A stretch of 34,460 nt of DNA from a virus (IMGVR_UViG_3300020045_011725:1-34460); one strand, 5' to 3'; shown: positions 1,879 to 17,971, counted from the stretch's first letter. Notes: generated from the letters alone by a model not told the origin. A program made the numbers and translations.

Positions 1879-1881
1879 TTT

Positions 1882-2793
1882 TTATGATTTAATTATGTTA
1901 TAACAACAATAAACTAATCCCGGGAAACCAATATTATATAATGGTTCCCAAAAAGATTCTATAACTAAGGCCGCCCGGTCATTTTCTGTTTTCAATAAAA
2001 CGCTTTGGGCATACCCCAATACATGTCGGCGAATACCTTCTGGCTCTTGGTCTTTTAACCCTTCCAAAATAGTTAATATTTCTTTCCAGCTACTTTTTTT
2101 CAATAAAGCCCGGCACAAATCAATACTATTTGAAGTTTCGGCGGCAACTTTTCTAGCAACTTCTAAACGTTTTTCAACCGGAGCATTTAAAACTTGCTCC
2201 AATATTTGTATAGCATTTCTTGGGTGTCCTAAAGAATCTTGAATTATTTGTTCATACACCTCTTTTTCTACCGATTGTCCTTCATTTCTAACAATACCCC
2301 GCAGCAGTCCTAAAAGTTGCGTTTCAGACAGCGTATTGACTTGAAACGACATACAACGCCCTACTATTGTTTTAATTAATTTATCCGGGTCGGTGGTGCA
2401 TAAAATAAAATAAACATGCTTTGGCGTATCTTCGAGGATTTTTAATAGTGCGTTTTGCGCATCATTTGTCATTTTGTGGCACTCATCAATTAACCAAATT
2501 CGACAAGGGCTTTGTATAGGCATGAAATTACTGTTTTTTCGTATTTCACGAACGGTATCAATGCCACGAAAGTCCGCTGAATCAACCTCTTTATAATCAT
2601 CCCCATTACAATTCAGTTTGTTTTTAACAATTCGTCCCAACGTAGTCTTTCCGCAGCCGGTTGGTCCATGGAATAGGAAAACATGTGGGCATTTTTCTGG
2701 ATTGGAAAGCATAGATTCCAGGGTTGCCACAATATTAGCATTGCCTTTTACTTGTTCTAAAGAATCGGGACGATATTTCAAATACAAACTCAT
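1882..2793 (-). CDS. Clamp loader AAA+ ATPase (DnaX gamma/tau-like)
   Basis: YLKYRP N-terminus, Walker A GPTGCGKTT, Walker B IDECH, AQNALLKILED, SRC-like GRC. Confidence 0.92.
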   Translation of the reverse strand: MSLYLKYRPDSLEQVKGNANIVATLESMLSNPEKCPHVFLFHGPTGCGKTTLGRIVKNKLNCNGDDYKEVDSADFRGIDTVREIRKNSNFMPIQSPCRIWLIDECHKMTNDAQNALLKILEDTPKHVYFILCTTDPDKLIKTIVGRCMSFQVNTLSETQLLGLLRGIVRNEGQSVEKEVYEQIIQDSLGHPRNAIQILEQVLNAPVEKRLEVARKVAAETSNSIDLCRALLKKSSWKEILTILEGLKDQEPEGIRRHVLGYAQSVLLKTENDRAALVIESFWEPLYNIGFPGLVYCCYNIIKS

Positions 2794-2795: not shown

Positions 2796-3014
2796 TTATT
2801 GTTTATTTATTATACAATTTTCTACTTTAATTTTTAAAAATAATTGAGAATGATTTAACCACCAAGCATACGTTCTCCTTAATCTCCCTTTTGGGTGAAA
2901 TCCAAATACAGTATAATGTAATCTTTCAATAAATTTTAATACCCTATGGTCTGGTATTATTAAATCTAAATTAAATTGATTTGATTCTACAATTAATCTT
3001 TTTGGATTTTTCAT
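2796..3014 (-). CDS. Hypothetical protein (72 aa)
   Basis: ATG at 3014 overlaps the polymerase stop (ATGA) and fills the gap to the clamp loader. Confidence 0.55.
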   Translation of the reverse strand: MKNPKRLIVESNQFNLDLIIPDHRVLKFIERLHYTVFGFHPKGRLRRTYAWWLNHSQLFLKIKVENCIINKQ

Positions 3015-4423
3015 AATTTTATTTTTTCTTTTTGAGTCCAATTACCATCAACGGGACATAATTCTGCATCAACTTCCAAAGGAACATTAATCCATTTCCA
3101 ATTTTCTGATAAATCATAACAAGTAACTTGTTTAGTTATCTTCTTAATGTATTCTAATTCATCAGGATGCACATCTAACCAAATGCTATCATGTATTTGG
3201 TTAATCAAACGGGTTTTTAAATTTTCCCTAATGATTATATCATCTAAGGCTATAAAACACCATAATAAACAATGAAACGCTGCCCCTTGTACCGGGTAAT
3301 TGATTACGTCATTTTTACTCATAATCCCCCTACAACGGAATCCAGTTTTCATATCAATATACCCATTCTTTTTGTAGGTATTGTACCAATTTTCCTTCCA
3401 TTGGGCATATACTTTAAAACGATTGCCCCAAAAATCGTTTTCTACTTGTTTTATATGCTCTGTAAAAGCGTCAATTGATTTAATCCCTTTAGAAATCAAA
3501 TGGTCTGATAAATGAAAATCATTAAATTTTGGTTCCCATCCTACCATATCCAATCCCTGACCTGGTTTCCATTTTCCATTGGGTAATTTTCCCCATTCAC
3601 AGGCTAAACTGATAGCACAATTTTTATAGTAATCACCATAAAATTCAGGAAAAACAAAACCGTTTTTGGCCGCTTGTCTAAACGTGTAATGTACTGGTAT
3701 ACTTTTATCAAAGCAGTCTATTAAAAATATCTGCTTTGCCATATCCCCATGCATATCTGTAGTTGGGTCATATAGATATTTTAACATCACGGGGTCTTTA
3801 TGATAACAAGCCGCAATGCGAACTTCCATACCACTGAAGTCAATTTCCATAAGTTGGTGACCCGGTCTTGGGTATAGTGCTTTTCGACATATTTTGTTTG
3901 CTTCTTCATCCCTTTTAGGTATGTTTTGAAAATTAGGATGGTCAGAACTACTGCGGAAAGTTCGAACCAGATGAAGATTAAAAAAAGGATGAATATACCC
4001 ATTCACTTGTTCCCGATAAAAAGATTCCAAATAGGTATCTTTTATTTTTTTAATTTTTTTAATCTGAATCAAAATATCTAATTCTGGGATATTTAATTCA
4101 CGTAAAGCATCTTCATCTGTTGAAAATTTACCAGTTACCGTAGTTTTATCTGTTTTTAATTTTTTTATAGTAAACAAAAAATGAGATAATTGTACCGGGG
4201 AATAAATATTCACAGTACTTTTTGAAGCATGTTGCCAGTGGCGATAAAAAGAAGATGAATAAAATTGATTTTCTAATCTTTCAATTTTTTTAGTTAAATG
4301 TGCTTTTTTTGTTTCTAAATAATTAACATCCACACGGATGCCTTGCATTTCTGCTCGTGATAAAGCTAAAGCCCCATTATGAAACAATTCATAAGCATTT
4401 TTTGTTTTAGGATTTATTGTCAT
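3011..4423 (-). CDS. polA: Family A DNA polymerase, polymerase domain only
   Basis: FRSSSDHPNFQNIP, motif A DFSGMEVR, motif B RQAAKNGFVFPEFYG, NYPVQG, motif C QIHDS; no exonuclease domain in this ORF. Confidence 0.93.
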   Translation of the reverse strand: MTINPKTKNAYELFHNGALALSRAEMQGIRVDVNYLETKKAHLTKKIERLENQFYSSSFYRHWQHASKSTVNIYSPVQLSHFLFTIKKLKTDKTTVTGKFSTDEDALRELNIPELDILIQIKKIKKIKDTYLESFYREQVNGYIHPFFNLHLVRTFRSSSDHPNFQNIPKRDEEANKICRKALYPRPGHQLMEIDFSGMEVRIAACYHKDPVMLKYLYDPTTDMHGDMAKQIFLIDCFDKSIPVHYTFRQAAKNGFVFPEFYGDYYKNCAISLACEWGKLPNGKWKPGQGLDMVGWEPKFNDFHLSDHLISKGIKSIDAFTEHIKQVENDFWGNRFKVYAQWKENWYNTYKKNGYIDMKTGFRCRGIMSKNDVINYPVQGAAFHCLLWCFIALDDIIIRENLKTRLINQIHDSIWLDVHPDELEYIKKITKQVTCYDLSENWKWINVPLEVDAELCPVDGNWTQKEKIKL

Positions 4424-4425
4424 AC

Positions 4426-4698
4426 TTATTTGTTTAAAACTTGGATTTTTCTTTCTTTAGCTTTCACAGTAAGTAACATTTTGAAAACAATTTGATTTCT
4501 CCCGTCTATTTCAAGGCATTTATCCCCAATAAGTGAATCGGCATCTTGGTAAGCTACGACATAACCAGAATCAAAAGCATTTTTAATGGCTATTTTTTGT
4601 TTTTCTTTTTGATTGTTTATAAATCCAGTTACAACCAAAGTTATAACCAAACAAATCAATAAAAAAATAATTAAATAATTATTTACCCAATGTCTCAT
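4426..4698 (-). CDS. Small protein with N-terminal membrane anchor
   Basis: Hydrophobic LIIFLLICLVITLVVTGFI; tightly packed between the exonuclease and polymerase genes. Confidence 0.65.
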   Translation of the reverse strand: MRHWVNNYLIIFLLICLVITLVVTGFINNQKEKQKIAIKNAFDSGYVVAYQDADSLIGDKCLEIDGRNQIVFKMLLTVKAKERKIQVLNK

Positions 4699-4709
4699 AA
4701 TTTCAAAAT

Positions 4710-5918
4710 TTAAAAGTTTAGTAATTTCATTTGTTTTATTGCTAATCTGTATTCAAATACAGAATCTAAAGCGCAATATCTAAGTAGTTTTTCTTTACCC
4801 CCCTGTGATTTTTGAACTAATTCCAATACTTTGTTAATCGAATTAGCATTTTTATTGTCTGCAGATAAATATGGAGAAATCTCACTGGCATAATCAACAA
4901 CCCCAAAATTAACATATGTTTGAAATTTAAGTCCAGTAATACCTTGGCGATTATCTAATATATGAGCGGCTTGCATCGTGTCAAAAGCCCAATTATTTAC
5001 TTCAATGCCTAATTTTGTTTTAGTCCAATTATACTCATATTTCATATTATGGGCTATTTTTCCAATATTATGATTTTCTAATAAATCAGTAAACGGTTTT
5101 AATTTTCTTTTAGAATCAGGTAACATAAAAGTATATACTTTATTGGGTTCATAACAAACCGAAGCACAAACAATTTTATGTTTTTCATCTTGAGGTTTCA
5201 AGCCAGTAGTTTCATAATCAAAAGCGACTAAATCACTTTTAATAGTACGTAAAACCTGTAAATCTTCTATTATTTCAATAATAGGTTCTTTATTCGTTTT
5301 AAATTCTGGTAAATTAAAAACCTGTTCCAAATCATCCTCAAAAATAATAACATCCAATCCATTTTCAGAACTTTCGATTTGTTTAGGGTGGAATACTGGA
5401 CAAATCCAAGTTTTTAAATCTTGGTCGGGTATGGTAAAACCACGCCATTTTTGAATATTACCAAAATCATTTTTCCAACGATTCCCAATTAAACTAAATA
5501 AAGCTAATTCACCAAAAACTAATACCAATTTAGGTTTATATTGATTTATTATTTGAAGTGTTCTTTTTCGACAGTTCGAAACCTCATCCATACTTGGTTC
5601 CCGGTCTTCATTATTTTTATCAATACAACGGCAATGACAAGCATTTATATGTAAGCAATCTTCATATAAATCAATACCAAACTTATTAAATGATTTTTTT
5701 AAAATTCGTCCCGTATTACCAGACCATAATTTATTTTGAAAATCATCATTTTCCGTGGGGGCTAAACCAATAGTGAGTATTTGTTTTTTAAATAGCCCCC
5801 ACGGTTCCATTCTTGGATTTTTGGAATTTTTATATAAACCACAAGAGATACAGGAACGCACTTTGCCGTCTGGGTTAGAAGTGGATTGTGTTTGTTTATA
5901 TGTAAAAAAACCTTGCAT
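4710..5918 (-). CDS. Family-4 uracil-DNA-glycosylase-like domain fused to DnaQ-like 3'-5' exonuclease (N-terminal half of a split PolA)
   Basis: CISC..C..C Fe-S-type cysteines, GLAP (canonical GEAP), VFHP motif B; ExoI FDYETTG, ExoII HNMKYE, ExoIII YCALDS. Confidence 0.85.
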   Translation of the reverse strand: MQGFFTYKQTQSTSNPDGKVRSCISCGLYKNSKNPRMEPWGLFKKQILTIGLAPTENDDFQNKLWSGNTGRILKKSFNKFGIDLYEDCLHINACHCRCIDKNNEDREPSMDEVSNCRKRTLQIINQYKPKLVLVFGELALFSLIGNRWKNDFGNIQKWRGFTIPDQDLKTWICPVFHPKQIESSENGLDVIIFEDDLEQVFNLPEFKTNKEPIIEIIEDLQVLRTIKSDLVAFDYETTGLKPQDEKHKIVCASVCYEPNKVYTFMLPDSKRKLKPFTDLLENHNIGKIAHNMKYEYNWTKTKLGIEVNNWAFDTMQAAHILDNRQGITGLKFQTYVNFGVVDYASEISPYLSADNKNANSINKVLELVQKSQGGKEKLLRYCALDSVFEYRLAIKQMKLLNF

Positions 5919-5920: not shown

Positions 5921-6910
5921 TTATGCTTTTTGTAAAGCAGCAACATATTGCCAGTTATCTGCTGAAAACTTAATCAAATTCCCATTATGAATCCCAATAT
6001 GAGTTTCATTCAAAACATTTTTTAAAAGATTAGGATTAACTAATATTTTTATTGGTTCTTTAGCGTCATATTTTACTTTAGCCGTTTCTTTATACCATCC
6101 GGCATCGGACGTTCCTTTAATCTTAATTAAATTATTTTCAATAAGCAATTCAACAGAATCCGTATTAAAAACGGAAGCCCTGTCAAGAATATCGTTGATA
6201 GTTTTTGGAAATTCTAAAGAAACCCCTTCAACTTTTAAAAAATTGGCGGTATCTGGAAATTTATCTTCAAAAATACGGCATGAAAGAATCGTATTTTCTT
6301 CATTTTTAAAATGAACCCAACCATTACCCTCTGTTATTTTCGTAGGTTTCGTTTTAAGTAATACTTGGGCCGATGAGGCGGGCAATAAAAAAGTGCCAAT
6401 TGGAAATTTATCGCAAACATTACACCGTGTAATCCTAAAACTGTCTGAACTTTCCACAAATCCATTTTCATTGATATGAATACATGTAAGTATTGGTTGA
6501 CTGCTATCTTTGGACACGGACTGTACGGTTTTGCTTACGGCTTCAATAAAACCAACAGGTAACGTTTTCCATTTTCCAAGTTTTCCAATTTCCTCCAATG
6601 GTAATTTGATTTCTTGGTGTAACGTCATGCCTGCTTTAGATTTTCCGCACGCAATTAAAATTTCAGATTCGGTAACTTCAATTTCAAAATCATCTACTTT
6701 TAACTTTGTTAAAAGTTTATGAAGCTCTTGGGCCTGAACGGCGCCAGTAACATTTAACCCTTCCACTGGATGGGAAATGCTTATTTCATCGTTATAAGTA
6801 ACAACCCGGTCATTGATAAAAGCAAATGAGGTACTTTGTTCAATTATTTCTTTATTTGCCAATCCCGGCTTAACTACCTCTAAAGCGTGCAATAATTCTT
6901 GTTTTTTCAT
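5921..6910 (-). CDS. Sliding clamp, DnaN beta-like
   Basis: 329 aa three-domain size; QPILTCIHI...SSDSFRI matches the DnaN RPxLxG...ATDGxRL pattern; FPD linker; clamp loader nearby. Confidence 0.8.
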   Translation of the reverse strand: MKKQELLHALEVVKPGLANKEIIEQSTSFAFINDRVVTYNDEISISHPVEGLNVTGAVQAQELHKLLTKLKVDDFEIEVTESEILIACGKSKAGMTLHQEIKLPLEEIGKLGKWKTLPVGFIEAVSKTVQSVSKDSSQPILTCIHINENGFVESSDSFRITRCNVCDKFPIGTFLLPASSAQVLLKTKPTKITEGNGWVHFKNEENTILSCRIFEDKFPDTANFLKVEGVSLEFPKTINDILDRASVFNTDSVELLIENNLIKIKGTSDAGWYKETAKVKYDAKEPIKILVNPNLLKNVLNETHIGIHNGNLIKFSADNWQYVAALQKA

Positions 6911-6921
6911 ATGTTTTTTAT

Positions 6922-7692
6922 TTATAAATAACTGTAAACTTTTCTTTTTCTAATGGGGTTTAATTTATCTTTGAAGCGTTCTAATCCTGAATTACCAACA
7001 GAACCCCCATCATTAACTAATTTACCACTATTAATGATATCATTCGAAGTATAAAATAACCATCTGGAAAATTCGTCCACAAATGGCTCTTTTTTATCGA
7101 CAATACATAATCTGTAGTTTATATACTTCCAATTGGTATCCCAAACATTTACGGCCTTCAAATGTTCGTTTTCATCATATAAAGCCCGTTTACATAATCC
7201 AGGAAAATCATTTAGTAAAATATTGGTTATTATTTCAGCATCTTCGGCATCATTTTTGTGTTCAAACCAGTTGGATAATAAAACAGAACATTGTTTTATA
7301 TCAATCCAATCACAATATACCCAATTAGCATGATTTTTAGAAAATTTTCTAATATTTTTCCTGAAAACTTCCCATTGACCCCCTTTTAATTCTAAGAAAT
7401 GGGAAGGGTTATAGACATACTCCCAATCTAAAAAAGAAATAGTAGAATAAGATGGGTATATCTTACAAAAATCAGACCAAATTGGTTTGTTTGATTTTTC
7501 TTGTCTATTATCGCAAACATAAATTGGGGGGAATAATAACCAACCATCGGCATCAACATAAGCCCAGTCATTTTCAAAATAACATTGAGCCCCAGAAGCT
7601 AATAAATAAGATTCACTGCAATAAAAATTTGGTTCAATCTTCTTTTTCTTCAGAAATTCCAAATAAATTGATGGAGGTATTATTTTTTTCAT
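6922..7692 (-). CDS. DUF2156/MprF-C-terminal-like GNAT-fold (aminoacyl/acyl) transferase
   Basis: EYVYNPSHFLELKGGQWEVFRKNIRKF and VNDGGSVGNSGLERFKDKLNP match the two conserved blocks I recall for this family. Confidence 0.65.
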   Translation of the reverse strand: MKKIIPPSIYLEFLKKKKIEPNFYCSESYLLASGAQCYFENDWAYVDADGWLLFPPIYVCDNRQEKSNKPIWSDFCKIYPSYSTISFLDWEYVYNPSHFLELKGGQWEVFRKNIRKFSKNHANWVYCDWIDIKQCSVLLSNWFEHKNDAEDAEIITNILLNDFPGLCKRALYDENEHLKAVNVWDTNWKYINYRLCIVDKKEPFVDEFSRWLFYTSNDIINSGKLVNDGGSVGNSGLERFKDKLNPIRKRKVYSYL

Positions 7693-7795
7693 TTATTTTA
7701 GGTTTTCCACAACAGTTTTTTTCATAACTACCATTTTTTAAAGATTGGATGAGTTTTTGAGAAACACCCCCTGTTTTTCTTGATTTTCCTCCCAT
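7634..7795 (-). CDS. Unannotated 53-aa peptide MGGKSRKTGGVSQKLIQSLKNGSYEKNCCGKPKINEKNNTSINLFGISEEKED
   Basis: ATG 2 nt after the stop of the upstream gene; fills the only gap in the cluster; below ORF-track cutoff; overlaps the start of the next gene by 59 nt. Confidence 0.5.
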   Translation of the reverse strand: MGGKSRKTGGVSQKLIQSLKNGSYEKNCCGKPKINEKNNTSINLFGISEEKED

Positions 7796-7797
7796 AA

Positions 7798-8556
7798 TTA
7801 TTTTCTCCTTGTTATTGGTTTACTTTCCCGGGCTTCTTTTATTTGTATGATTTCATCATATAAACAACACGCAATAATGCCTGTGAAATTACGCTTGTTC
7901 ATATCTGCGCTTTTTACCAATATGAAATCTTCTTTTCCTTTTTTCGGAAATGAAAATTTAAGGTTGTCTTGAAAATTGAATAAGGCTTTAAAATCATCTG
8001 TTTTTATAGCGATAGGCCCAAAATCGTTCGCTAATTTTTCAGAAAACATTCCCGTTTCGTTTTTTTCAATTTCAACAACACCCCCTGAGTATATGTTTCT
8101 TTGAATCATTTTTAAAGTACCCCCGGCACTTCCAATAAACTCAATATGACTTAAATCATTATCTATTAATTCCAAAATATCACGAGGCAAAAGAACAGTG
8201 GGACGTTCCTCCAAATCTTCCATATAGGATTGGTATAATTCTTTAACCTCTGCCGGTGACAATTCGGTAGTGCCACATATTTTTTTCCTTTGAAAATCCC
8301 CTTTTTTAGAATAAAAAACAATTTTATTATCTTTTATATCAAATTCATTACTGTCGTAATCGTTTGCTTTAAAAGATATGGGTGTTTCGAAGCGTCCTTC
8401 TGATTGTCGCAATCTAAAAGACAATAACACCGTATGGTCATAATTCATAATAAATATTTCACTATCTTGGGCATAAATAGTATTTTTTAAACCACCATTT
8501 TGGTCTAATGCCACGGCTTGAGCGAAAATAGCCTCAACTAAATTGTTTATTTTCAT
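7798..8556 (-). CDS. Putative second sliding clamp (PCNA/gp45-like two-domain fold)
   Basis: 252 aa; IFIMNYDHTVLLSFRL resembles the PCNA AMDxSHVxLVxLxL strand pair; C-terminal FTGIIA strand; fold is inferred only. Confidence 0.45.
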   Translation of the reverse strand: MKINNLVEAIFAQAVALDQNGGLKNTIYAQDSEIFIMNYDHTVLLSFRLRQSEGRFETPISFKANDYDSNEFDIKDNKIVFYSKKGDFQRKKICGTTELSPAEVKELYQSYMEDLEERPTVLLPRDILELIDNDLSHIEFIGSAGGTLKMIQRNIYSGGVVEIEKNETGMFSEKLANDFGPIAIKTDDFKALFNFQDNLKFSFPKKGKEDFILVKSADMNKRNFTGIIACCLYDEIIQIKEARESKPITRRK

Positions 8557-9953
8557 ATTATTTCTTTTATTAAATTTTCACGATAATCTGTATTCTCTTT
8601 AATCCAAATCAAGCCATCTGAATCCATCCCACAAGGGATTAATCCAGCACACCAACGTTGGCTATATGCCATATTCCCCCCCAAATTCCAAAGCATTTTT
8701 ACTTCTTTTTTTAAATCTTCAGTAAGAAAACCCCCATTTTTATTTACATAATTTTCAAAATCTGACCAAGAAACAGCGACCCCTTTTTTTAATATGTATC
8801 TTGCGGCCATAACCGTACATCCATAATTCCAACCACCTTCAAAATAATCCTCAACTTCACAACAAATAGATTGGTCATTATTAATTTGATTACCCATATC
8901 AAAAGTACTACAACTAAATCCGTAGTCCCTAAATAATTCCATGAATTTACCCAATAAAAGAGAGCCTAATGGCTGACTATCACACCCCACTGTAAAAATA
9001 CGGTCATAATCTAAGCCAATATTCATAAAACATTGACGTAATCCAGAATTATTTGCTGTATACGAATAAGTATCAAAAGTTATATTCCTAACACCAGCCC
9101 CCCACATATCTTCCATGTATTTTGTTAAATATTCCGGTTCATCATTGGTTAAAAATAAATAGGGTTCTATTCTTGCCACTACACGAACTCCAGCCGCACA
9201 TAAATTTTTAATACCTTCTAAGCGTTGTTCATATGATGGCGCTCCAGGCTCTAATGCTTTTAATAAAGTATTATTTGCCGAAATAACAGTAACATGTACT
9301 GCGGCTTTCGCTTTATTTTCTGACAATGCTTTCACATAGGGGTCAGTCCCAACTACATTTGATTTAGTGTTCAACATTACTGGGTAAGCTATTTCTTTCA
9401 GATATTCTAACATAGATAGGCTGACCCCGGCTTTTTGTTCATTTCTTAAAAAATCTTCAAAACGAATACCCATTCGAACCGGAATTTCTAAAGCAAAGGC
9501 TTTATTAATATGCGTCAATTTTTGTTTTTCAGGCATGGTCATGCCTCTAAAACGTTCCATTTTATCTAATTCTTTTTTGTAGTATTCCGGGTTGCAATGT
9601 CGTAGCCCCATTGTTTTACTATTGTCAAAAAAAGCAGTATATAAAGAAGCCCGGAAAGCATTCGCAAAACAATAAATACAATTATAAGGACAAACCAAAC
9701 CATCCCAAATATCCATATTAAAAGGTAAGGGACAAGCAGCGGCACGAACGGATATTTCCAGAAAATTATTAATTTCTTCAGTGTTGAGCAACCGCTCTTG
9801 TTTTCGCCATTCCCCTATTTTTAAATTGAATTGGCTATAATTTTTTTTTCGTCCTTTCTCTTGTACAATTTCGGCCTTTCTATTTGAAGAATACAACTGA
9901 GTCATCCGGGGGACAACTCTGGCAATAATTTTTCTTAACTCCCAATAATTCAT
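8553..9953 (-). CDS. Radical SAM enzyme (SplB/COG1533-like)
   Basis: CPYNCIYC CxxxCxxC motif, NTKS, LEPGAPSYEQRL, RIEP, C-terminal CC. Confidence 0.88.
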   Translation of the reverse strand: MNYWELRKIIARVVPRMTQLYSSNRKAEIVQEKGRKKNYSQFNLKIGEWRKQERLLNTEEINNFLEISVRAAACPLPFNMDIWDGLVCPYNCIYCFANAFRASLYTAFFDNSKTMGLRHCNPEYYKKELDKMERFRGMTMPEKQKLTHINKAFALEIPVRMGIRFEDFLRNEQKAGVSLSMLEYLKEIAYPVMLNTKSNVVGTDPYVKALSENKAKAAVHVTVISANNTLLKALEPGAPSYEQRLEGIKNLCAAGVRVVARIEPYLFLTNDEPEYLTKYMEDMWGAGVRNITFDTYSYTANNSGLRQCFMNIGLDYDRIFTVGCDSQPLGSLLLGKFMELFRDYGFSCSTFDMGNQINNDQSICCEVEDYFEGGWNYGCTVMAARYILKKGVAVSWSDFENYVNKNGGFLTEDLKKEVKMLWNLGGNMAYSQRWCAGLIPCGMDSDGLIWIKENTDYRENLIKEII

Positions 9954-9987
9954 AATGTAGTTTTATAATATTATACAATTTTTGTAT

Positions 9988-10800
9988 TTAATGACCGATA
10001 TTCCAAAATAAAATTGGTGCTTTTAATGATTTTTCATTTTCTATCAGCCATTGCCAGGCTTTAGCGTCATAATAAGGGTGACATGGAAATGGTGGAGTTA
10101 TTTGACTTTTTTGAGTATATTCCCATCCAGGGTCTACTAACTTAAAATTATTAGTTTTAAATATTCCCGAATTTATTGATTGGGCTTTATTTAAAATTTG
10201 ATTTGCTTTTTTATTAACATCTCCTGTTCGGGTCATTATCCCATATAAATCCCAAGATGAAGGCCATTCGTTTAATATACTCATTATACCAGAACATATA
10301 GTACCACTACCAACGCAAACTATTATGGATTTAATATTAAAATCCAAATAATTTAAAGTGCCCCAAAATTCATGGGCTGTTTCCTGTATTGTTTCTTTAA
10401 AAGGTAATCCTAATGGCAATAATACAGAATTTGGTATTTTTTTTAAAATGGATTTACTAATATACCAATTCACCTTAGCCATACCAGCTTTAATTGGTAT
10501 GATTTCAGCCCCTAATTTATACCATTGTTTCCTATGATATTCCAATACTTCTGGAGTTTTAATATATTGAGGGTCAAAAATAATAGCTTTCATCCCTAAT
10601 TCTTTACACGCCCAGGTAACCCCCCACCCAGCCATTGATATACTGGTTTCTGTGTACCCAACAGTGGTTATTCCTTGTTTTTTTAATTTTTCTAAATGTG
10701 GGATGATGCCCCGGCACTTGGAAAACGGAGGGGCAGGGGATTCAAAACATAAGTCCTCCCGTTTAACATAAATATTTCCATACAATTCCACAGGGGTCAT
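9988..10800 (-). CDS. PLP-dependent fold-type II enzyme, phage type
   Basis: IYVKREDL...SKCR (Schiff-base Lys), phosphate loop VGSGTICSG, PYYDAKAW, terminal LFWNIG. Confidence 0.85.
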   Translation of the reverse strand: MTPVELYGNIYVKREDLCFESPAPPFSKCRGIIPHLEKLKKQGITTVGYTETSISMAGWGVTWACKELGMKAIIFDPQYIKTPEVLEYHRKQWYKLGAEIIPIKAGMAKVNWYISKSILKKIPNSVLLPLGLPFKETIQETAHEFWGTLNYLDFNIKSIIVCVGSGTICSGIMSILNEWPSSWDLYGIMTRTGDVNKKANQILNKAQSINSGIFKTNNFKLVDPGWEYTQKSQITPPFPCHPYYDAKAWQWLIENEKSLKAPILFWNIGH

Positions 10801-11849
10801 AGTCCGGCATCTTTTAAATTAAACATTTTTTTATTAGTCCCATTAATTAAGGCTAAACCGTCATTAAAATCACCAGTACCATCATTTGTTTCTTTTATCG
10901 TTTTTTCAATGGAATATCCTTTTTGACGACATAATTTAAAATGATGCGAGTTAAAAGTACAAGGATTTGGAACATTAACGCCACAACAAGTATTCGCTTT
11001 TTCAACCCAATCTTTACCAGTATTAACAAAGTCTGGACAACCAAGTATTATATTATATTTTTTGGAAATTTCTAACAAATTAGGTAGTATTTTTTTCCAT
11101 TCTTTATCTTGATTGTAAAACCAAATTTTTTCAATATCCACACCAATCGAATGTAATCTTTTAGCCACGTACGCATTGAAATGGAAATTATATGTATTGT
11201 ATCTATTAATTTTATGGGCTTTTAAGAGTTTTAAAGTATCTTCAAAATCTTTTTCGGTATGAAACCCTGGAATAAACGGTTCCCCATTAACGCCTCCTGG
11301 TATGCCTAAACTTTGTAAATATGATAAATGTTTAATTCTATCTAAAGGGGGGGTTGTTCTTTTTCTTTCAAATATTTCCCAATCTTTTTCTAATCCAGGG
11401 GAAACAACAGGCATAATGGTAATTAAATTTTTTTTATATGCTCTTATTATTTTCTTTTCGTATTCCATCATTATCCCTGTAAACCGGGTCTGTATTACGA
11501 AAGTCCAATCTAATTTTGTTAATATATTGAATATTTCTTTGCTAATTTTATGTTCTTTTTCGGCTTCTTGAAAGGGGTCTGTCTTATTACCCCATCGTAT
11601 TGTTTTTTTATGCGCTAAAGCGCTTGAAAGTGTAGTTTTTGGAAATTTATTTTGTAAAGACGTTATTAGTTTTTTTTCTAATAAGAATAAATCAGCGGGT
11701 TTTAATTCTTTTCCCCAAACATGATTCAAATTTCGTAAATAACAATGGTGGCAATCAGTAAGACAATTACCATAACTGTCTAAAGATAACGAAAGGGGGC
11801 AATATAAACTGTCCCCCCTTATCGTTATACTGTTTTTTAATAGTTCCAT
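10797..11849 (-). CDS. Radical SAM enzyme (SplB/COG1533-like), paralog of 8553-9953
   Basis: CLTDCHHC CxxxCxxC motif, GNKTDPFQ, EPFIPG, C-terminal TCCG. Confidence 0.88.
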   Translation of the reverse strand: MELLKNSITIRGDSLYCPLSLSLDSYGNCLTDCHHCYLRNLNHVWGKELKPADLFLLEKKLITSLQNKFPKTTLSSALAHKKTIRWGNKTDPFQEAEKEHKISKEIFNILTKLDWTFVIQTRFTGIMMEYEKKIIRAYKKNLITIMPVVSPGLEKDWEIFERKRTTPPLDRIKHLSYLQSLGIPGGVNGEPFIPGFHTEKDFEDTLKLLKAHKINRYNTYNFHFNAYVAKRLHSIGVDIEKIWFYNQDKEWKKILPNLLEISKKYNIILGCPDFVNTGKDWVEKANTCCGVNVPNPCTFNSHHFKLCRQKGYSIEKTIKETNDGTGDFNDGLALINGTNKKMFNLKDAGL

Positions 11850-11859
11850 TTTTTAGTTA

Positions 11860-12465
11860 TTACTTAGATGGAACCTCCATGCCTAATGCTATAAAAGCAC
11901 GATGTATCATTTTAATCATGTTAAGACTCTCTTTCACATTGTCCCGGCCGCCATGCTCAATATTAATTTTGTTGGCGTTTTTAGCCCAATCTTCAAAAGA
12001 TTTTGGCTTTGTATTTTGTAACGCCAAAGCAATGGCCTCAGAACGGGAAAAATTTGATTTTTTAACCTCTTTTTTAGGGGTTGTTTTGGTTTCCTTTTTG
12101 GCCGGTTTTTCTTCAGGTATGTCCTCTTGGTCATCATCTTGGGCATCCTCGTCATCGTCCTCTGGTTCTTCAACTTTAGCAACTGGTTTTGCTACTTTTT
12201 TAACCTCTTTTTTAGGGGTTGTTTTGGTTTCCTTTTTGGCCGGTTTTTCTTCAATTTCTTCTTCAGGTTCCTCCCTCAAAGTATCAATCAATTCTTGGGT
12301 TTCTTCAGAAAACTCATCATCTTCAGTAGTCAAAGAGATTGCTTTTTTTACTAAAGGTAACAAAGCAACAACCTTTAAACTGGAATCAATTGCAGGGTCA
12401 AGTCCAAGAACTTCATTAAGTTCGTCAGCCGCTTTTTTAAGCGTTTTTTGTGAAATAGTACTCAT
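11860..12465 (-). CDS. Charged low-complexity protein with duplicated Lys-rich repeat
   Basis: EEKPAKKETKTTPKKEVKK occurs twice around an acidic tract. Confidence 0.75.
   Translation of the reverse strand: MSTISQKTLKKAADELNEVLGLDPAIDSSLKVVALLPLVKKAISLTTEDDEFSEETQELIDTLREEPEEEIEEKPAKKETKTTPKKEVKKVAKPVAKVEEPEDDDEDAQDDDQEDIPEEKPAKKETKTTPKKEVKKSNFSRSEAIALALQNTKPKSFEDWAKNANKINIEHGGRDNVKESLNMIKMIHRAFIALGMEVPSK
12058..12253. repeat. 58-bp perfect direct repeat (12058-12115 and 12196-12253)
   Basis: ttttttaacctcttttttaggggttgttttggtttcctttttggccggtttttcttca read twice. Confidence 0.92.
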
Positions 12466-12708: not shown

Positions 12709-14247
12709 TCATAAATAACTCCCAATAATGGGTCTCCCTCGTTTTAAATTCTGTAAAACAACAATCTCATCGGCGCTGCTAAACTCGTCCTCCCTCAATA
12801 TTAACTTATTGATACGCATCAAACCAATCTTTTTTTCCCGGTCTTTCGGGTCTTGGTTTAATCCATACATTGCCGTAACATGTCCGTACTTACGCTTATC
12901 CTCACTAAAATTACTAAGTTTCAAGCGGTGTTGATCATACGATTTAGAATCAGCTTGGGTTGCTGTTATTAGTATACAATTTTTCTCTTGGTTCAGTCCT
13001 CTCAAATCTTTCCATATTTGATTTTGTTGATGTCTAAATTCAACCCGGGCATCACAAACTAATAAATCAGCGTAATCAATAATAATAAAATCAGGCGCAA
13101 ATCCATCTTCTTTTTCCCAAATACCCAAAATAGCTTTTATTTGCTTAACAGACAAACTACCATTGGCGTGGGTGGATAGTCTAAATTTTCGTTTATGTTT
13201 AATGAAGAACTCCGAATATACATCTTTGGCCTCTTCTTTTTTTAATGGACTAATTGCCGGGGTTTCTTTAATCCAAGGAACGCCCCAATGAGCGTCTTCG
13301 TATTCCTCACAATTATAACAGGGTTTATAATCTGGATTTTCTTTTAAAGCATCTACAAGAGCGTCTTTCGTAACCTCCTCCCGAATCATTTCTTCAGTCA
13401 TATTATCAAATACACCAAAATCACATTCTCTTTCTTTTTTCCGGCATGTATTTCGTTGGTTATGTATACAATCCCGCAATGGCTCGTGGGAAGCTACGCA
13501 ATATTTTTCTTTGTTTGATTTTCCCGTTAAATTTATAGCAATACGCATTAGTTGCTGCCCTTCACTCATATCCCCGGCTTGGAAAAAGGCAACTTTGTAT
13601 TTTTTACAAGCCCGTAAAGCTATTTCAATCATTAAAAATGTTTTACCTCTTTTTTCTGAAGCCATAAAAGCAATAAAAGCCCCTCGAACAAACTGGTCAT
13701 TCCAAAATTTACCTAATTGCTTTGGCCATTTTAAAAGTGGGTCTGCCTGAGCCTCAAAAGCCTTTTCAATTTTTTCCAAAACAGCATTACTGCTTAAATC
13801 GATATCAGTATCAGAAGCGTCTGGGATGGGCTTAAAATCACAAGCATTTTTTTCGGCTTCTTCAATCTGACTACTGGCAATCAAGGCTTGTAATGTATCA
13901 CAATATAGGATCAACCTACGTTCTCTGAAATGCTTTTTTGATTGGGCAATAGCGTAATCTAAATTGAAGGACTCTTGTTCATACTCTTCTGACAATCCGG
14001 GCAATATTTCTTCTTCAATCTCGTTTGTTATTTCTTTAGAAATCTTCGATGAAGCAACCTTTTCATAAAAAATACTTTCAATATTACGTCCCGGGGCTTT
14101 ATCGAATTTTTCGAAATATTCCCAAACCCAACTTGCCAGTCGTTTTGCTGTAGGGGATTCTAAGTAGGAAACATCCCAAATATTTCTGATTTGACGTAAA
14201 AAATCAGTGGATGTGATTAAATAGATTATTATTTTACGTTCAATCAT
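12709..14247 (-). CDS. dnaB: Replicative helicase, DnaB/gp41-like (SF4), with Cys-rich insertion
   Basis: Walker A-like ASEKRGKT, IIIDYADLL, TATQA, FSEDKRK; insertion DCIHNQRNTC..EC..PCYNC. Confidence 0.85.
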   Translation of the reverse strand: MIERKIIIYLITSTDFLRQIRNIWDVSYLESPTAKRLASWVWEYFEKFDKAPGRNIESIFYEKVASSKISKEITNEIEEEILPGLSEEYEQESFNLDYAIAQSKKHFRERRLILYCDTLQALIASSQIEEAEKNACDFKPIPDASDTDIDLSSNAVLEKIEKAFEAQADPLLKWPKQLGKFWNDQFVRGAFIAFMASEKRGKTFLMIEIALRACKKYKVAFFQAGDMSEGQQLMRIAINLTGKSNKEKYCVASHEPLRDCIHNQRNTCRKKERECDFGVFDNMTEEMIREEVTKDALVDALKENPDYKPCYNCEEYEDAHWGVPWIKETPAISPLKKEEAKDVYSEFFIKHKRKFRLSTHANGSLSVKQIKAILGIWEKEDGFAPDFIIIDYADLLVCDARVEFRHQQNQIWKDLRGLNQEKNCILITATQADSKSYDQHRLKLSNFSEDKRKYGHVTAMYGLNQDPKDREKKIGLMRINKLILREDEFSSADEIVVLQNLKRGRPIIGSYL

Positions 14248-15050
14248 ATTGGTAATTGTATTTTTTGCAAACTAACTGTACTTACATGGGTATAGATTTC
14301 TGTTGTTTTACTTGAATAATGTCCTAATATTTTTTGAATATACCGTAAATCAACTCCAGCTTCTAACATAGCCGTTGCCGATGAATGTCGGAGTAAATGA
14401 AAATGATATTCTTTCCCTAAATATTGTTTAACTATTTGATTACAACTTGTTGCGGAGTATTTTAAATCAAATTGTCCGTTAAATAAATAAACAGAAGGTC
14501 TACAAGATTTAAAATATAAACGTAATAAATCAAGTATTTTTATGGAAAGTGGGACTATCCTATCTTTTTTACCTTTTGCTTGTCTAATATTTATTATCAT
14601 TCTTTTTGAATCTATATCTTCAATTTTTAAGTTAATAATTTCACTTACCCGTAACCCAACTGAATACGCTAATGAAATAATAGCTTTATGTTTTATATTT
14701 GGAATTTTATCAATCTTATCCAATAAAAATTCTTTATCTATAACTTGTGGTAAATGTTTTTCTTTACGGGGTCTTTGAAAATCAATTTTATCATATTTCT
14801 TTTTTAATACTTTTTCATATTCAAATTTCAAAGCATTAATTATTTGGTTTTGTTGAGAAATAGATGAAAATTTGTATGTAGTTAAGTATTCTGAAAAATC
14901 ATTTGATGTAAGATGTTGGTAATATTTGTTTCTATTTTCTATAAACTTCTCAAAATAATGAGAATACATTTGAATAGTTCTTTCCGAATAATTAAAATAT
15001 TTTAAAGATTGTGTATAAATCTTTAAAAATTCGTCTATATTTTTATTCAT
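14244..15050 (-). CDS. Tyrosine recombinase (integron-integrase-like/XerD-like) lacking the IntI-specific insertion
   Basis: N-terminal SAM-like YSERTIQMY; catalytic GLRVSE, KGKKDR, HLLRHS, LGH, TTEIYTHV; stop overlaps the helicase ATG; ATG at 15050 (TTG at 15056 possible). Confidence 0.92.
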   Translation of the reverse strand: MNKNIDEFLKIYTQSLKYFNYSERTIQMYSHYFEKFIENRNKYYQHLTSNDFSEYLTTYKFSSISQQNQIINALKFEYEKVLKKKYDKIDFQRPRKEKHLPQVIDKEFLLDKIDKIPNIKHKAIISLAYSVGLRVSEIINLKIEDIDSKRMIINIRQAKGKKDRIVPLSIKILDLLRLYFKSCRPSVYLFNGQFDLKYSATSCNQIVKQYLGKEYHFHLLRHSSATAMLEAGVDLRYIQKILGHYSSKTTEIYTHVSTVSLQKIQLPI

Positions 15051-15056
15051 ACTCAA

Positions 15057-15093
15057 ATAGTTATGCGTTAAAATTTATATATTATAGTTATGT
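15057..15093 (+). other. attI-like primary recombination site (core G/TTATGT at 15087)
   Basis: First GTT of the array, no upstream hairpin, directly 5' of the recombinase; 9-bp direct repeat ATAGTTATG at 15057-15065 and 15084-15092. Confidence 0.6.
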
Positions 15094-15108
15094 TTAATTT
15101 TTAAAATT

Positions 15109-15405
15109 TTATGAATTTGTTTTATACTTCGCAATCCATTCATCATAAGTCAGTGTATTAAATTGTAAATATCTCTTTGCAATTTCAGAATTATATTGTC
15201 TGTTTTCTTCCATTAAATTACCATCTCTAAACATTTCACCAGTTCTAATTGCTTTCCAATCTAATCCACCATTCCATTCAACAATTAACATTTGTGACAT
15301 CACATCTTTTAAATGCTCTTGTGTTGTTGTTTCACTTTGCATATTTATAAAACCATCAGTTACTTGTTTCATATATGCTTCGTATTCCTTTTGATATTCT
15401 CTCAT
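15109..15405 (-). CDS. Cassette 1 hypothetical protein (98 aa)
   Basis: ORF fills cassette 15087-15484. Confidence 0.75.
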   Translation of the reverse strand: MREYQKEYEAYMKQVTDGFINMQSETTTQEHLKDVMSQMLIVEWNGGLDWKAIRTGEMFRDGNLMEENRQYNSEIAKRYLQFNTLTYDEWIAKYKTNS

Positions 15406-15436
15406 ATTTTCATTTGTATAAAATTTTTAAAACTAA

Positions 15437-15490
15437 ACATAACAACAAATATATTGCATTAAAACGACAATATATTTGCAACCGTTATAG
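15437..15490 (+). repeat. attC-like site 1 (short, 54 bp)
   Basis: ACATAAC-aa-CAAATATATTG...CAATATATTTG-caacc-GTTATAG. Confidence 0.8.
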
Positions 15491-16126
15491 TGCATTGTAA
15501 AAAGACTGCCACTCCGATTGAGATTTGAATTTTGAAAAGTATTCATTTCCTTCAAATATCAATTTAAAATCAGTCCATTTTAATTTCTCATTTACAGTTG
15601 GGGTATATTTTTCAACTCCAAACGTTTTCGCTCCTATTCGTTTTGCAAAGTCAACAGTAAAGTAAAAAGCCTTTAAATTATTTTCTGCCAACACTTTAAA
15701 CCCATGCTCTAAAATATCAATTACTTCTTGTTTGCTTTTCTCTTTGCCGATAATCATTGATAATCTTCCACTATGTATAAAGTTATGGCAATAATGGCAA
15801 AGTGGCTCAATACTTTTTACTTCGCAAATTCCCGTATTATAATCAATATTCCAAAACTCATGTGCCTCTAACCATTTATGTTTTTTAGCCTCTGATTTAG
15901 CAACTCCACAAGCTACGCAATGGTAATCTGTGCTTTTATATGTTTTTTGCCTTGTTTCATCCCACCAATTTTGACCCTTAATTTCTCGTGGTGCAACACC
16001 ATGTAAGGGTTTTGGAATGTGGGGGTGGCAAAGAATTTCAGGTTTCAAAACCAACGCACTATAACACTCGCTATAAGTAATGGCGGAGTTCGTGCTGTTA
16101 TTATCGTTTGTGCTTTCTATTGTCAT
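15485..16126 (-). CDS. Cassette 2 HNH-like Zn-binding nuclease-domain protein
   Basis: CVACG...LEAHEFW...LCHYCHNFIH; stop codon is the TAA of the core site; likely ATG lies inside the attC loop. Confidence 0.7.
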   Translation of the reverse strand: MTIESTNDNNSTNSAITYSECYSALVLKPEILCHPHIPKPLHGVAPREIKGQNWWDETRQKTYKSTDYHCVACGVAKSEAKKHKWLEAHEFWNIDYNTGICEVKSIEPLCHYCHNFIHSGRLSMIIGKEKSKQEVIDILEHGFKVLAENNLKAFYFTVDFAKRIGAKTFGVEKYTPTVNEKLKWTDFKLIFEGNEYFSKFKSQSEWQSFYNAL

Positions 16127-16188
16127 TTGTTGTATTTTGATAGTGAGTAGTTCTAAATCCGCCACTACTCATAGCGGAACCGTTAGCG
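16059..16188 (+). repeat. attC-like site 2 (130 bp)
   Basis: CTATAAC-act-CGCTATAAGTAATGGCGGA...TCCGCCACTACTCATAGCG-gaacc-GTTAGCG. Confidence 0.88.
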
Positions 16189-16425: not shown

Positions 16426-16468
16426 TATGTTCTTTTTTAAAATTAATACTCTGAAATAAAGCACGAAA

Positions 16469-17178: not shown

Positions 17179-17184
17179 CCAACC

Positions 17185-17958: not shown

Positions 17959-17971
17959 AACAAAAGGCTGG

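Follow-up and report, generated by a model that had tools for sequence, protein, structure and literature searches.

A phage replication-region module with a conserved core and M6-like tailoring enzymes, predicted to place an amino-acid-derived group on DNA

To our knowledge, every amino-acid mark described on phage thymine begins with 5-hydroxymethyluracil and the action of a kinase and an ADDT. How, then, might a phage build such a mark if it carries a finishing enzyme of this chemistry and none of the enzymes that begin it? The question is raised by a 34,460-base viral stretch (IMGVR_UViG_3300020045_011725:1-34460, hereafter the window), in which an earlier note had proposed that two radical SAM enzymes, a PLP enzyme, a DUF2156-like transferase and a clamp-like protein form a new DNA hypermodification pathway.

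A six-gene block among replication genes

The five proposed genes are contiguous open reading frames on the minus strand with two 4-nt overlaps, at 10797-10800 and 8553-8556 (Table 1). Their reported position between the helicase region and the clamp and polymerase genes is borne out by matches of the flanking genes: a DnaB-like helicase lies on one side, and genes for the beta clamp, UDG-exonuclease, PolA and clamp loader lie on the other. All five genes are real, but the count was one short, as a sixth, invariant gene for a small peptide had been overlooked; the six occupy less than 5 kb in all. In 60 of 66 locus groups the phage beta clamp is the next gene after the transferase, and module-less sister loci have it too, so it belongs to the backbone, as does the acidic protein beside DnaB, which has homologues in module-less sisters. 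The window avoids GATC (observed/expected 0.06) and CTAG (0.02) and encodes a Dam-like methylase, which suggests that any mark gives no blanket restriction protection.

Table 1. Features of the module and its immediate context in the window
Feature	Coordinates	Strand	Remarks
rSAM350, SPL-like radical SAM enzyme	10797..11849	-	350 aa
PLP enzyme, fold type II, M6 gp52 family	9988..10800	-	270 aa
rSAM466, core SPL-like radical SAM enzyme	8553..9953	-	466 aa
Two-domain PCNA-fold protein	7798..8556	-	252 aa; PCNA-like fold of model
AGGAG Shine-Dalgarno of peptide gene	7805..7809	-	within 3' end of clamp gene
Basic peptide gene	7634..7795	-	53 aa; sixth gene of set
DUF2156/MprF/FemX-type tandem GNAT	6922..7692	-	256 aa; PF09924 match below cut-off
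Phage beta-type sliding clamp, context	5921..6910	-	backbone gene
Acidic low-complexity protein between DnaB and cassette, context	11860..12465	-	backbone, not module-specific
DnaB-like helicase	12709..14247		flanks block

The PLP enzyme (PALP and phrog_7093 matches) aligns end to end with gp52 of phage M6 (33% identity, 286 columns, E 1e-47). Its K28 corresponds to the gp52 Schiff-base lysine K36 and is invariant in 32/32 aligned sequences, which identifies it at the sequence level as a gp52-type PLP decarboxylase. According to PMC8989533, gp52 decarboxylates C-alpha-glycyl-thymine in DNA, and the window enzyme is predicted to be a decarboxylase too, acting on an amino acid carried by a base in DNA. 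It matches 67 phage records, and the 40 listed are all from Pseudomonas, Stenotrophomonas or Sphaerotilus phages, M6 included.

Both radical SAM enzymes belong to the SPL-like branch of the superfamily, judging from their motifs and profile matches. Each has a CX3CX2C motif (C29/C33/C36 in rSAM350, C88/C92/C95 in rSAM466), invariant in 60/60 and 56/56 sequences of the two families, and each matches the PA0069/Rv2578c models below their cut-offs (PA0069: E 2.4e-12 and 3.6e-14, well short of the equivalog cut-offs); PF04055 is above cut-off for rSAM466. The extra cysteines of rSAM350 (C17, C271, C288 and C289) likely hold a second Fe-S cluster, and C74, C120, C364 and C365 of rSAM466 are also invariant. 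The latter enzyme and rSAM350 are distant paralogues (hhalign probability 98.4), and no other gene of the region has as high a median identity to its relatives as rSAM466 (57%). Kinship with the M6 radical SAM gp53 is remote and closer for rSAM350, with E 1.9e-9 for the rSAM350 profile against gp53 and pairwise values of 1e-4 and 0.032 for the two enzymes. A gp53-family profile gives them 9.5 and 5.0 bits, compared with 288-637 bits against gp53 for its orthologues in ADDT loci, and we therefore rejected both as gp53 orthologues (N-to-C glycyl isomerases). Neither rSAM profile matched any radical SAM enzyme among solved-structure sequences, which suggests that neither is SPL itself.

The transferase matches PF09924 (E 6.6e-6), and its predicted model (pLDDT 95.7) superposes on the DUF2156 structure 2HQY by VIA-align (Z 23.4, rmsd 2.6, 251 aligned), followed by the MprF-like L-PGS (Z 16.1), Sbb17 (Z 14.5) and FemX (Z 14.1), ahead of the next tandem GNATs (11.7). 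Helix 98-120 has a mean net charge of +5, and R111, K112, N113 and K241 are invariant. The model therefore predicts an aminoacyl-tRNA-dependent enzyme, its tandem GNAT fold being closest to that of aminoacyl-tRNA users. It had no Mom match in Pfam or PHROGs, and Mom was not among the 50 fold matches listed.

The clamp-like assignment also stands. The best Foldseek matches of the predicted model (pLDDT 85.6) are PCNA (E 1.9e-8; VIA-align Z 15.0, rmsd 4.3, 208 aligned), and the modelled protein has a two-domain clamp fold, so that the phage has a clamp-like protein in addition to its beta clamp. Its helices have mean charges of -2.1, -1.2, -0.1 and -0.8, against +1.3 to -0.5 for helices of the beta clamp placed by eye; as they are neutral to acidic, the protein may not encircle DNA.

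An invariant core with an exchangeable cassette

We surveyed 53 locus groups, namely those fully spanned from DnaB to the transferase. rSAM466, the PCNA-fold clamp, the peptide and the transferase occur together in all 53, with the clamp gene found by ORF call in 52 and by tblastn in one (L185). This co-occurrence is far beyond chance, and the genes of this core do recur together in other phages. As a pathway, the block nevertheless is not the one fixed set of five that had been proposed: the PLP gene is present in 27/53 groups and is exchanged in relatives for an aldo-keto reductase, joined in some by a PaMx11 gp47-type oxidase. A flavin oxidase occupies the tailoring slot in 3/53 groups, and an intact PLP gene and the reductase are both absent from 16/53. 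Every group has a second, swappable radical SAM enzyme that travels with the tailoring cassette; it is rSAM350 in 47 groups, and the other 6 carry a DUF362 gene and a radical SAM gene of ~400 aa instead. The rSAM350 members of loci with a reductase and a methyltransferase form a single clade (8/8). The module is widespread in uncultured phages, with 307 peptide clusters at 50% identity in addition to the 53 groups; the core was not found in any cultured phage searched, nor the module in literature searches.

The peptide opens with an invariant GGKSRKxG, continues through an amphipathic-looking [VI]SxxL[IV]xxL stretch and ends in a variable tail with a hydrophobic xLF-type motif. It is present in 62/62 groups that have the clamp and the transferase. 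Synonymous codon changes occur among 65 distinct peptides, and the invariance is at the protein level. The best 150 of the 307 clusters are all 40-73 aa and keep GGKSRK, G8, S11 and L14 throughout; among these 150, the hydrophobic tail motif occurs in 99 (shuffled mean 19), and in 11 the GG is set back from the start by extra residues, so the position of the alpha-amine is not fixed. A similar C-terminal motif ends 10/13 cassette methyltransferases versus 127/1374 background proteins. No Pfam family is common to the peptide members, and an alpha/beta-type SASP was rejected because 0/63 peptides match Pfam SASP at E up to 1. Of 28 window genes checked, the peptide gene alone has a 5-nt Shine-Dalgarno (AGGAG) and a strong ribosome-binding site, and such a site is present for 56/65 peptide genes versus 3-7 of 23-54 for the four enzyme genes. 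Strong translation signals and protein-level invariance are as expected if the peptide is needed in bulk, and we regard it as a candidate amino-acid carrier or adaptor.

The tailoring genes tie the module to DNA hypermodification, as the earlier note had supposed. In addition to the end-to-end match with gp52, three of the PLP genes carried by modules fall within the ADDT-linked gp52 enzymes in our tree, so the slot accepts a canonical enzyme. The L006 flavin oxidase, the one of the three that was searched, matched 20 phage records: PaMx11 and 19 others, from Pseudomonas-, Stenotrophomonas- or Rhizobium-type phages. The PaMx11 match is gp47 (27% identity, E 4e-22), the substrate of which is N-glycyl-thymine. 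GNAT and methyltransferase families of the module cassette recur in canonical ADDT+gp53 loci (E down to 2e-39 and E 1e-8 to 2e-4, respectively).

Where the first step might come from

HMUDK (PF18748) and ADDT/aGPT-PPlase2 (PF18724) were each found in 0/21 module records, including 0/9 that are at least 90% complete, with M6 positive as a control for both. A purpose-built kinase profile found none in G001-G004 or in the window, which is a genome fragment, a purpose-built ADDT profile (16 sequences) also found none, and other kinase Pfams were covered by Pfam scans of the window and G002 ORFs. The earlier statement that no kinase or aGPT-PPlase-type transferase is recognizable in the window is thus correct and extends to near-complete relatives. 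A thymidylate-synthase fold is present in 2/21 module records and 0/9 near-complete ones, the G001 gene being a synthase or a hydroxymethylase, and TET/JBP dioxygenases were found in 0/21 records in a search where no control rang either. The dUMP hydroxymethylase, kinase and ADDT of 5-hmdU-type pathways (M6/ViI/PaMx11) are therefore not a feature of these loci by profile search. The module reuses proven finishing enzymes, so another way of starting must reside in its core.

We consider it likely that the module adds an amino-acid-derived group, an amine, to phage DNA after replication without a kinase or ADDT. A specific route through tRNA, a peptide carrier and radical coupling at thymine has, in our estimate, slightly less than an even chance. 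Both are favoured by a core that is invariant in 53/53 groups, next to a second radical SAM that changes along with the tailoring genes. On this specific route, a charged tRNA would give up its amino acid, probably glycine, to the transferase for loading onto the tiny peptide, in which an invariant Lys or Ser may be the acyl acceptor and the xLF tail may dock on a clamp. rSAM466, the candidate coupling enzyme, would join the amino acid radically to the base, most likely at the thymine methyl group, at some point with release of the carrier. SPL-family enzymes form thymine allyl radicals, and adducts arise in the absence of the quenching cysteine, as described in PMC3467042. The candidate rearranging enzyme rSAM350 might then act on the attached amino acid, before decarboxylation by the PLP enzyme to an aminoethyl-type group. 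By analogy with gp52, the PLP substrate would be a DNA-bound amino acid with both amine and carboxyl free; by analogy with its fold relatives, the transferase would use aminoacyl-tRNA as donor. If a base were aminoacylated directly, the very carboxyl that a gp52-type decarboxylase removes would be engaged, so a carrier or another amino-acid source seems to be needed. The earlier proposal of tRNA-dependent installation accordingly keeps its predicted enzyme and conflicts with decarboxylation in its direct form. Taken whole, with a tRNA-charged peptide docked on the clamp and a radical SAM welding its amino acid to an unactivated thymine methyl in fresh DNA, the picture is tentative and on balance unlikely to be right in every part.

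Another amino-acid source might be SAM. A radical SAM would place a 3-amino-3-carboxypropyl (ACP) group on the base, the PLP enzyme would trim it to aminopropyl, the tRNA-dependent transferase would cap the amine with an amino acid, and the peptide would merely be a clamp adaptor. In seven sister loci that have none of the core genes, the PLP gene still occupies the tailoring slot, paired with an N6/N4-methyltransferase-fold gene in 6/7 or a lone SPL-like radical SAM gene in 1/7, and their PLP clade adjoins that of the module. No ADDT was found in five sister records (33-80% complete; a search without positive control) or, with purpose-built profiles, in three of these five, and L258, L265 and L270 have a radical SAM and a PLP gene with no ADDT nearby. 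The PLP substrate can thus apparently be made without the tRNA transferase or the peptide, which makes the ACP route a real rival. We still judge it unlikely: the oxidase of gp47 type and the PLP enzymes nested in the gp52 clade indicate glycine-thymine chemistry, the methyltransferase-fold family occurs in module phages with and without a PLP gene, so the pairing may be incidental, and nine invariant peptide residues are left under-explained.

The target might instead be the peptide itself, or a tRNA or protein, with a RiPP-like pathway yielding a modified basic peptide such as a DNA-binding or host-inhibiting factor. A short peptide with an invariant segment and a strong ribosome-binding site, beside radical SAMs and an aminoacyl transferase, is a layout usual in peptide-modifying clusters, and FemX-type enzymes acylate peptide lysines. 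Peptides are also named among FemX targets in PMC13219725. We give this reading a somewhat lower chance than the ACP route, as the tailoring enzymes are related to the DNA-acting gp52 and gp47 and are common to canonical thymidine-hypermodification loci, the module is fixed in a replisome operon and brings its own clamp fold, and neither a peptidase nor a transporter is a recurrent occupant of the slot in the module loci surveyed. Less probable again is direct aminoacylation of an exocyclic amine of adenine or cytosine, with the radical SAMs rearranging the adduct and the clamp and peptide acting only as a tether. Mom, a GNAT, sets a precedent by transferring the glycine of Gly-tRNA onto N6 of adenine in DNA (PMC13219725), and the modelled transferase has a tRNA-type GNAT fold; yet the amide-linked amino acid would have no free carboxyl for a gp52-type decarboxylase, the nearest folds acylate lipids and peptides, and many module loci encode adenine and cytosine methylases. 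That the radical SAMs repair DNA in the manner of SPL and have a clamp for themselves, with the other genes as unrelated passengers, we consider very improbable despite their SPL-like family matches and an Atlas neighbour cluster automatically named DNA repair photolyase: M6 gp53 bears the same database name and is an isomerase, the second radical SAM co-varies with the tailoring genes, and the transferase and peptide are never missing. Several findings also count against our preferred route: neither radical SAM is a gp53 orthologue, 16/53 groups have neither an intact PLP gene nor the reductase, the alpha-amine position of the peptide varies, the helices of the clamp-like protein are neutral to acidic, the window avoids GATC and CTAG, and tRNA-Gly is only 1/9 distinct tRNA genes across 283 loci.

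Comparison with known systems

If the preferred reading is correct, the module would modify viral DNA by a path not described before that bypasses the known starting enzymes, and would be an oxygen-independent way of functionalizing ordinary DNA. It could be the first thymine hypermodification to need no modified nucleotide precursor, kinase or dioxygenase, and its swappable cassette would yield a range of differently modified bases. According to PMC8989533, the published metagenome survey was seeded with the kinase, and so it could not have seen this module.

M6 makes 5-(2-aminoethyl)-deoxyuridine with the dUMP hydroxymethylase gp58, the kinase gp54, the ADDT gp51, the radical SAM isomerase gp53 and the PLP decarboxylase gp52 (PMC8989533). 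The window resembles it in its gp52-family decarboxylase, in adjoining SPL-like radical SAMs with extra invariant cysteines (gp53 has a second cluster) and in its site among replication genes. Unlike M6, hydroxymethylase, kinase and ADDT were not found even in near-complete relatives, and there are two radical SAMs that are not gp53 orthologues, together with a tRNA-type transferase, a PCNA-fold protein and the invariant peptide. The PaMx11 pathway to 5-AcNmdU comprises the ADDT gp46, the flavin oxidase gp47 and the acetyltransferase gp48. A gp47 homologue in the tailoring slot of related loci reproduces the PLP-versus-flavin swap between M6 and PaMx11, whereas the window has the PLP option, and the oxidase in related loci always comes with an aldo-keto reductase and a retained second radical SAM.

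Mu Mom, a Gly-tRNA-dependent GNAT that makes 6-NcmdA, establishes that Gly-tRNA can feed a DNA mark (PMC13219725). Like Mom, the transferase is a phage GNAT-fold enzyme, and the charged tRNA that Mom uses for a post-replication mark is the donor predicted here; the module would be, after Mom, a second instance in which charged tRNA supplies DNA chemistry. Mom works by itself and is built on one GNAT core bearing an insertion, whereas the transferase is a tandem protein of DUF2156/MprF type, always accompanied by radical SAMs, a clamp fold and a peptide. It shares with the MprF/aa-PGS synthase domain, FemX, Sbb17 and DUF2156 (2HQY) the tandem GNAT fold, a basic helix and a GLxxFKxK-type motif, and differs from the MprF group in being soluble, stand-alone and phage-borne, without a flippase.

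Elp3 combines radical SAM and GNAT domains and adds carboxymethyl to uridine C5; an activated acyl donor is radically coupled to the base and then hydrolysed (PMC7261163). The likeness to the proposed scheme is one of logic only. In scaffold-peptide pathways such as PEARLs, a ribosomal peptide carries a tRNA-derived amino acid. Elp3 and PEARLs act on tRNA or make small molecules, whereas the module would possibly work on DNA through a peptide carrier, as the first scaffold-peptide pathway with that target.

A six-gene module in the replication arm

The five open reading frames (ORFs) reported in the earlier note are all present where it had placed them, and a sixth, of 53 codons, is flanked by the clamp-like and transferase genes (table). 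The window comprises a complete phage contig of 34,460 bases. A search for sequencing runs covering positions 6900-11900 turned up none. In the minus-strand replication arm, genes for an SNF2 helicase, sigma factor, primase and DnaB-like helicase are followed by the module block and then by genes for the beta clamp, a UDG-exonuclease, PolA and the clamp loader. PolA is split here; relatives carry a fused form or a DnaE replacement, and the UDG domain is kept in both DnaE relatives checked (L029 and L030). We consider it very probable that the module as a whole encodes DNA hypermodification.

Coordinates of module genes, their surroundings and features of related loci (L-numbers)
Record	Coordinates	Strand	Feature
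Window	10797-11849	-	rSAM350
Window	9988-10800	-	PLP enzyme
Window	8553-9953	-	rSAM466
Window	7798-8556	-	clamp-like protein
Window	7634-7795	-	peptide
Window	6922-7692	-	transferase
Window	3011-5918		PolA split into UDG+exonuclease gene and polymerase gene
Window	14244-19661		integrase-family gene, two HNH genes, Dam-like methylase
Window	17185-17994		Dam-like methylase
Window	29427-29621		cold-shock domain gene, between terminase and portal
Window	30730-32925		731-aa repeat-rich protein without family match, between terminase and portal
L029	13536-14996		third SPL-like radical SAM gene
L049 (genome G001)	13271-14086		tRNA-Gly(CCC) and thymidylate-synthase-fold gene directly after beta clamp
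L008, L004, L026	3767-4591, 5716-6600, 7556-8449		slot upstream of cassette: TET-associated glycosyltransferase (PF20691) and two unassigned ~295-aa genes, GT-A-like by eye
L032 (genome G002)	15964-19783		sugar-nucleotide cluster: two epimerases, DegT aminotransferase, FemAB-like GNAT, deacetylase
L033 (genome G002)	1620-2708		GT2 gene near sugar-nucleotide cluster, among virion genes
L258, L265, L270	3609-4883, 2839-3906, 4683-5978		unrelated phage loci: SPL-like radical SAM gene adjoining gp52-family gene

The PLP enzyme (270 aa) aligns end to end with gp52, the PLP decarboxylase of phage M6 (33% identity, E 1e-47), keeps the Schiff-base lysine named for gp52 in PMC8989533, and matches 67 of 50,697 phage records. 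Two further proteins, rSAM466 (466 aa) and rSAM350 (350 aa), are distant paralogues in the radical SAM branch resembling spore photoproduct lyase (SPL), and each has a CX3CX2C motif and four further cysteines, kept at 98-100%. These extra cysteines are in keeping with a second cluster like that measured in gp53, the M6 radical SAM isomerase (PMC8989533). By profile, rSAM350 is closer to gp53 (E 1.9e-9) than rSAM466 is (E 1.6e-3); sequence comparisons led us to reject both as gp53 orthologues. The rSAM466 gene is often interrupted near CX3CX2C by an intein or endonuclease-bearing insertion (L022, L023, L024, L056, L064, L084, L091, L146 and L174), a mark typical of essential conserved genes.

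Predicted models give the 252-aa protein a two-domain clamp fold (PCNA, Z 15.0, rmsd 4.3, 208 aligned); the neutral to acidic charge of the helices makes a ring around DNA only a possibility. The 256-aa transferase is predicted to be a tandem GNAT fold with a basic helix; its nearest match is 2HQY (Z 23.4, rmsd 2.6, 251 aligned), followed by the aminoacyl-tRNA users L-PGS/MprF, Sbb17 and FemX (Z 16.1-14.1). Searching the sequences of solved structures with the clamp-like and both radical SAM profiles returned nothing useful, and complex prediction for peptide residues 1-36, rSAM466, clamp and transferase (score 0.01, where the mark is 0.32) counts neither for nor against an interaction.

A constant core and an exchangeable cassette

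Three scans of viral contigs yielded 30, 66 and 80 loci in 73 groups, and our tallies cover the 53 groups spanning DnaB to the transferase, the remaining 20 being excluded. In this gene-neighbourhood survey, which the earlier note had proposed, rSAM466, clamp-like protein, peptide and transferase are all present, in the same order, in 53/53 groups; these core genes were the queries for fetching loci, and the information therefore lies in the partner genes. Within the cluster of five genes originally put forward, rSAM466, clamp and transferase thus hold throughout, and the PLP gene (27/53) and rSAM350 (47/53) do not.

Every one of the 53 groups has a second radical SAM enzyme, either rSAM350 or, in six groups (L026, L076, L086, L132, L172 and L183), a ~400-aa enzyme encoded with a DUF362 Fe-S protein; the two never occur together, and the DUF362 cassette is never accompanied by a PLP gene or reductase (6/6). 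The rSAM350 proteins of loci with reductase and methyltransferase form one clade (8/8, support 100) and their clamps are scattered, so the second radical SAM enzyme is part of the tailoring cassette. Trees were quick or FastTree builds, midpoint-rooted without outgroup, and show grouping, not direction. In 5/53 groups (L029, L106, L089, L146 and L169) yet another SPL-like radical SAM gene (~490 aa), the third of the locus, lies downstream of the transferase behind an 85-118-aa gene; it has relatives also in L244, L252 and L261, canonical loci of the amino acid:DNA transferase ADDT.

Among tailoring genes, an aldo-keto reductase occurs in 11 groups, a methyltransferase-fold protein in 12/53 and a flavin oxidase in 3/53, always alongside the reductase. 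PLP gene and reductase co-occur in 1 group, with PLP only in 26, reductase only in 10 and neither in 16, one of which (L099) has a PLP fragment (Fisher p 0.002, kinship ignored). Nine distinct tRNA genes were found in 283 loci; one, a tRNA-Gly, closely follows the beta clamp in G001, a number too small to carry weight. The G001 cassette also contains a dCMP deaminase, and the sugar-nucleotide cluster of G002 possibly serves virion glycosylation.

The transferase and clamp-like protein had no match among annotated phage records. Across 185,579 prokaryotic species, rSAM466 was found on 6 contigs, every one of them MAG-derived; where a contig is long enough to judge, its gene order is that of the phages.

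The core peptide

We gathered 65 distinct viral-locus peptides via their motif, which makes a motif count among them circular. Non-circular evidence comes from the peptide's presence in 62/62 locus groups with both clamp and transferase, and from codons that vary synonymously, serine and arginine each being drawn from both of their codon families. Searching 1.84 billion representatives with a profile gave 307 clusters; the best 150, a set biased towards the motif, are all of 40-73 aa and keep GGKSRK, G8, S11 and L14 in every one, with GG directly after the start codon in 139 and intervening residues in 11. A hydrophobic tail motif, putatively clamp-binding, is found in 99/150 (19 after shuffling). 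A similar tail ends the cassette methyltransferase in 10/13 cases (background proteins, 127/1374), and the window's Dam-like methylase has an xLF-type C terminus like the peptide's. The tails of the peptide and of the cassette methyltransferase co-vary (permutation p 0.02, 12 pairs), a weak signal because about two clades account for it.

A 5-nt Shine-Dalgarno site lies upstream of the peptide gene in 56/65 cases, as compared with 35/55 for the beta clamp, 24/63 for the clamp-like protein, 6/54 for rSAM466, 7/53 for rSAM350, 3/25 for PLP and 3/23 for the transferase; of 28 window genes checked, no other has one. This strong site makes it likely that the peptide is produced in bulk. Across the whole contig Shine-Dalgarno sites are almost lacking and start contexts are A-rich, resembling Bacteroidota-type translation and hinting at the host. 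A SASP-like identity was rejected, there being no Pfam SASP match. Two longer singletons among 7988 scored (P0391 and P0392), not interpretable, place the peptide behind an unrelated radical SAM domain in one and before a PF11300 domain in the other.

Possible routes to a modified base

Several parts are shared with thymine hypermodification. Three PLP genes from module loci group within the ADDT-linked gp52 enzymes, the cassette GNAT and methyltransferase families are also found in canonical ADDT+gp53 loci, and the sister-locus flavin oxidase is a homologue of PaMx11 gp47, which takes the place of gp52/gp53 in PaMx11. The earlier note recognised no kinase or aGPT-PPlase-type transferase in the window, and profiles agree; ADDT and the kinase HMUDK occur in 0/21 long module records, of which 9 have a completeness of 90% or more, in a search whose M6 control scores. 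Purpose-built profiles found no entry enzymes in the window or genomes G001-G004, nor did a Pfam scan of 90/113 listed ORFs of the complete genome G002, the other ORFs being small and on the opposite strand or belonging to the module or to replication. Of the 21 module records, 2 have a thymidylate-synthase fold and 0 a TET/JBP dioxygenase, the latter in a search without any scoring control. Searches of openly accessible literature found no description of the module, parts of which may be mentioned in the 2013 Iyer/Aravind survey of systems that modify DNA bases.

For gp52 the substrate must be an amino acid attached to DNA, its amine free and its carboxyl available for removal (PMC8989533), whereas an aminoacyl-tRNA transferase would tie up that carboxyl; a carrier is the simplest reconciliation. 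We infer a scheme, every step included, in which the transferase would charge the peptide with an amino acid, rSAM466 would couple this amino acid to a base, after which the acyl link would be cleaved, rSAM350 would rearrange the adduct and the PLP enzyme would decarboxylate it; we hold this peptide-carrier scheme as plausible but tentative. The thymine methyl is the favoured coupling site, since the tailoring enzymes have their origin in thymine pathways and enzymes of the SPL type generate allyl radicals on thymine, which can be captured as adducts (PMC3467042). Neither dinucleotide nor palindrome counts told 5 module genomes apart from 3 module-less ones, and they indicated no target base.

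The argument from the PLP gene is limited by module-less sisters. Among the best 80 of 139 matches examined in a PLP-alignment scan, seven sister loci (L234, L237, L239, with L240 its repeat, L241, L242, L245 and L247) have no core gene, yet a PLP gene occupies the same slot, which lies between DnaB and the beta clamp or polymerase. These PLP proteins make up a separate clade (7/7); 6/7 loci carry an SPPY-type N6/N4-methyltransferase-fold gene, 1/7 a single radical SAM gene, and 4/7 share an uncharacterised ~150-aa gene. ADDT, rSAM466 and transferase were not found in three sister records by purpose-built profiles, nor in five (33-80% complete) by searches without a scoring control. The gp52-type decarboxylase family therefore apparently has other upstream routes, probably with SAM as their source, and an aminocarboxypropyl-to-aminopropyl DNA mark is a candidate in these sisters. 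PLP proteins of the unrelated loci L258, L265 and L270 form a further clade, and no ADDT was found in the available stretches.

These seven sisters favour SAM, through its 3-amino-3-carboxypropyl part, as the source of the DNA-bound group in the module too, a reading we consider unlikely. Strong avoidance of GATC and CTAG in the window contig was counted against hypermodification by a peptide carrier. That the target is a peptide or protein, not DNA, seems to us quite unlikely, a Mom-like direct route is improbable, and employment of the radical SAM enzymes in repair is very improbable indeed.

The peptide-carrier scheme has partial precedents. Like Mu Mom, for which Gly-tRNA can supply a DNA mark (PMC13219725), it would draw on a charged tRNA, and like Elp3, in which an acyl donor is coupled by a radical and then hydrolysed (PMC7261163), it would combine radical coupling with later breakage of an acyl link. 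With M6 and PaMx11 hypermodification the module shares the finishing end, but the entry enzymes ADDT and HMUDK were not found in the module records searched.
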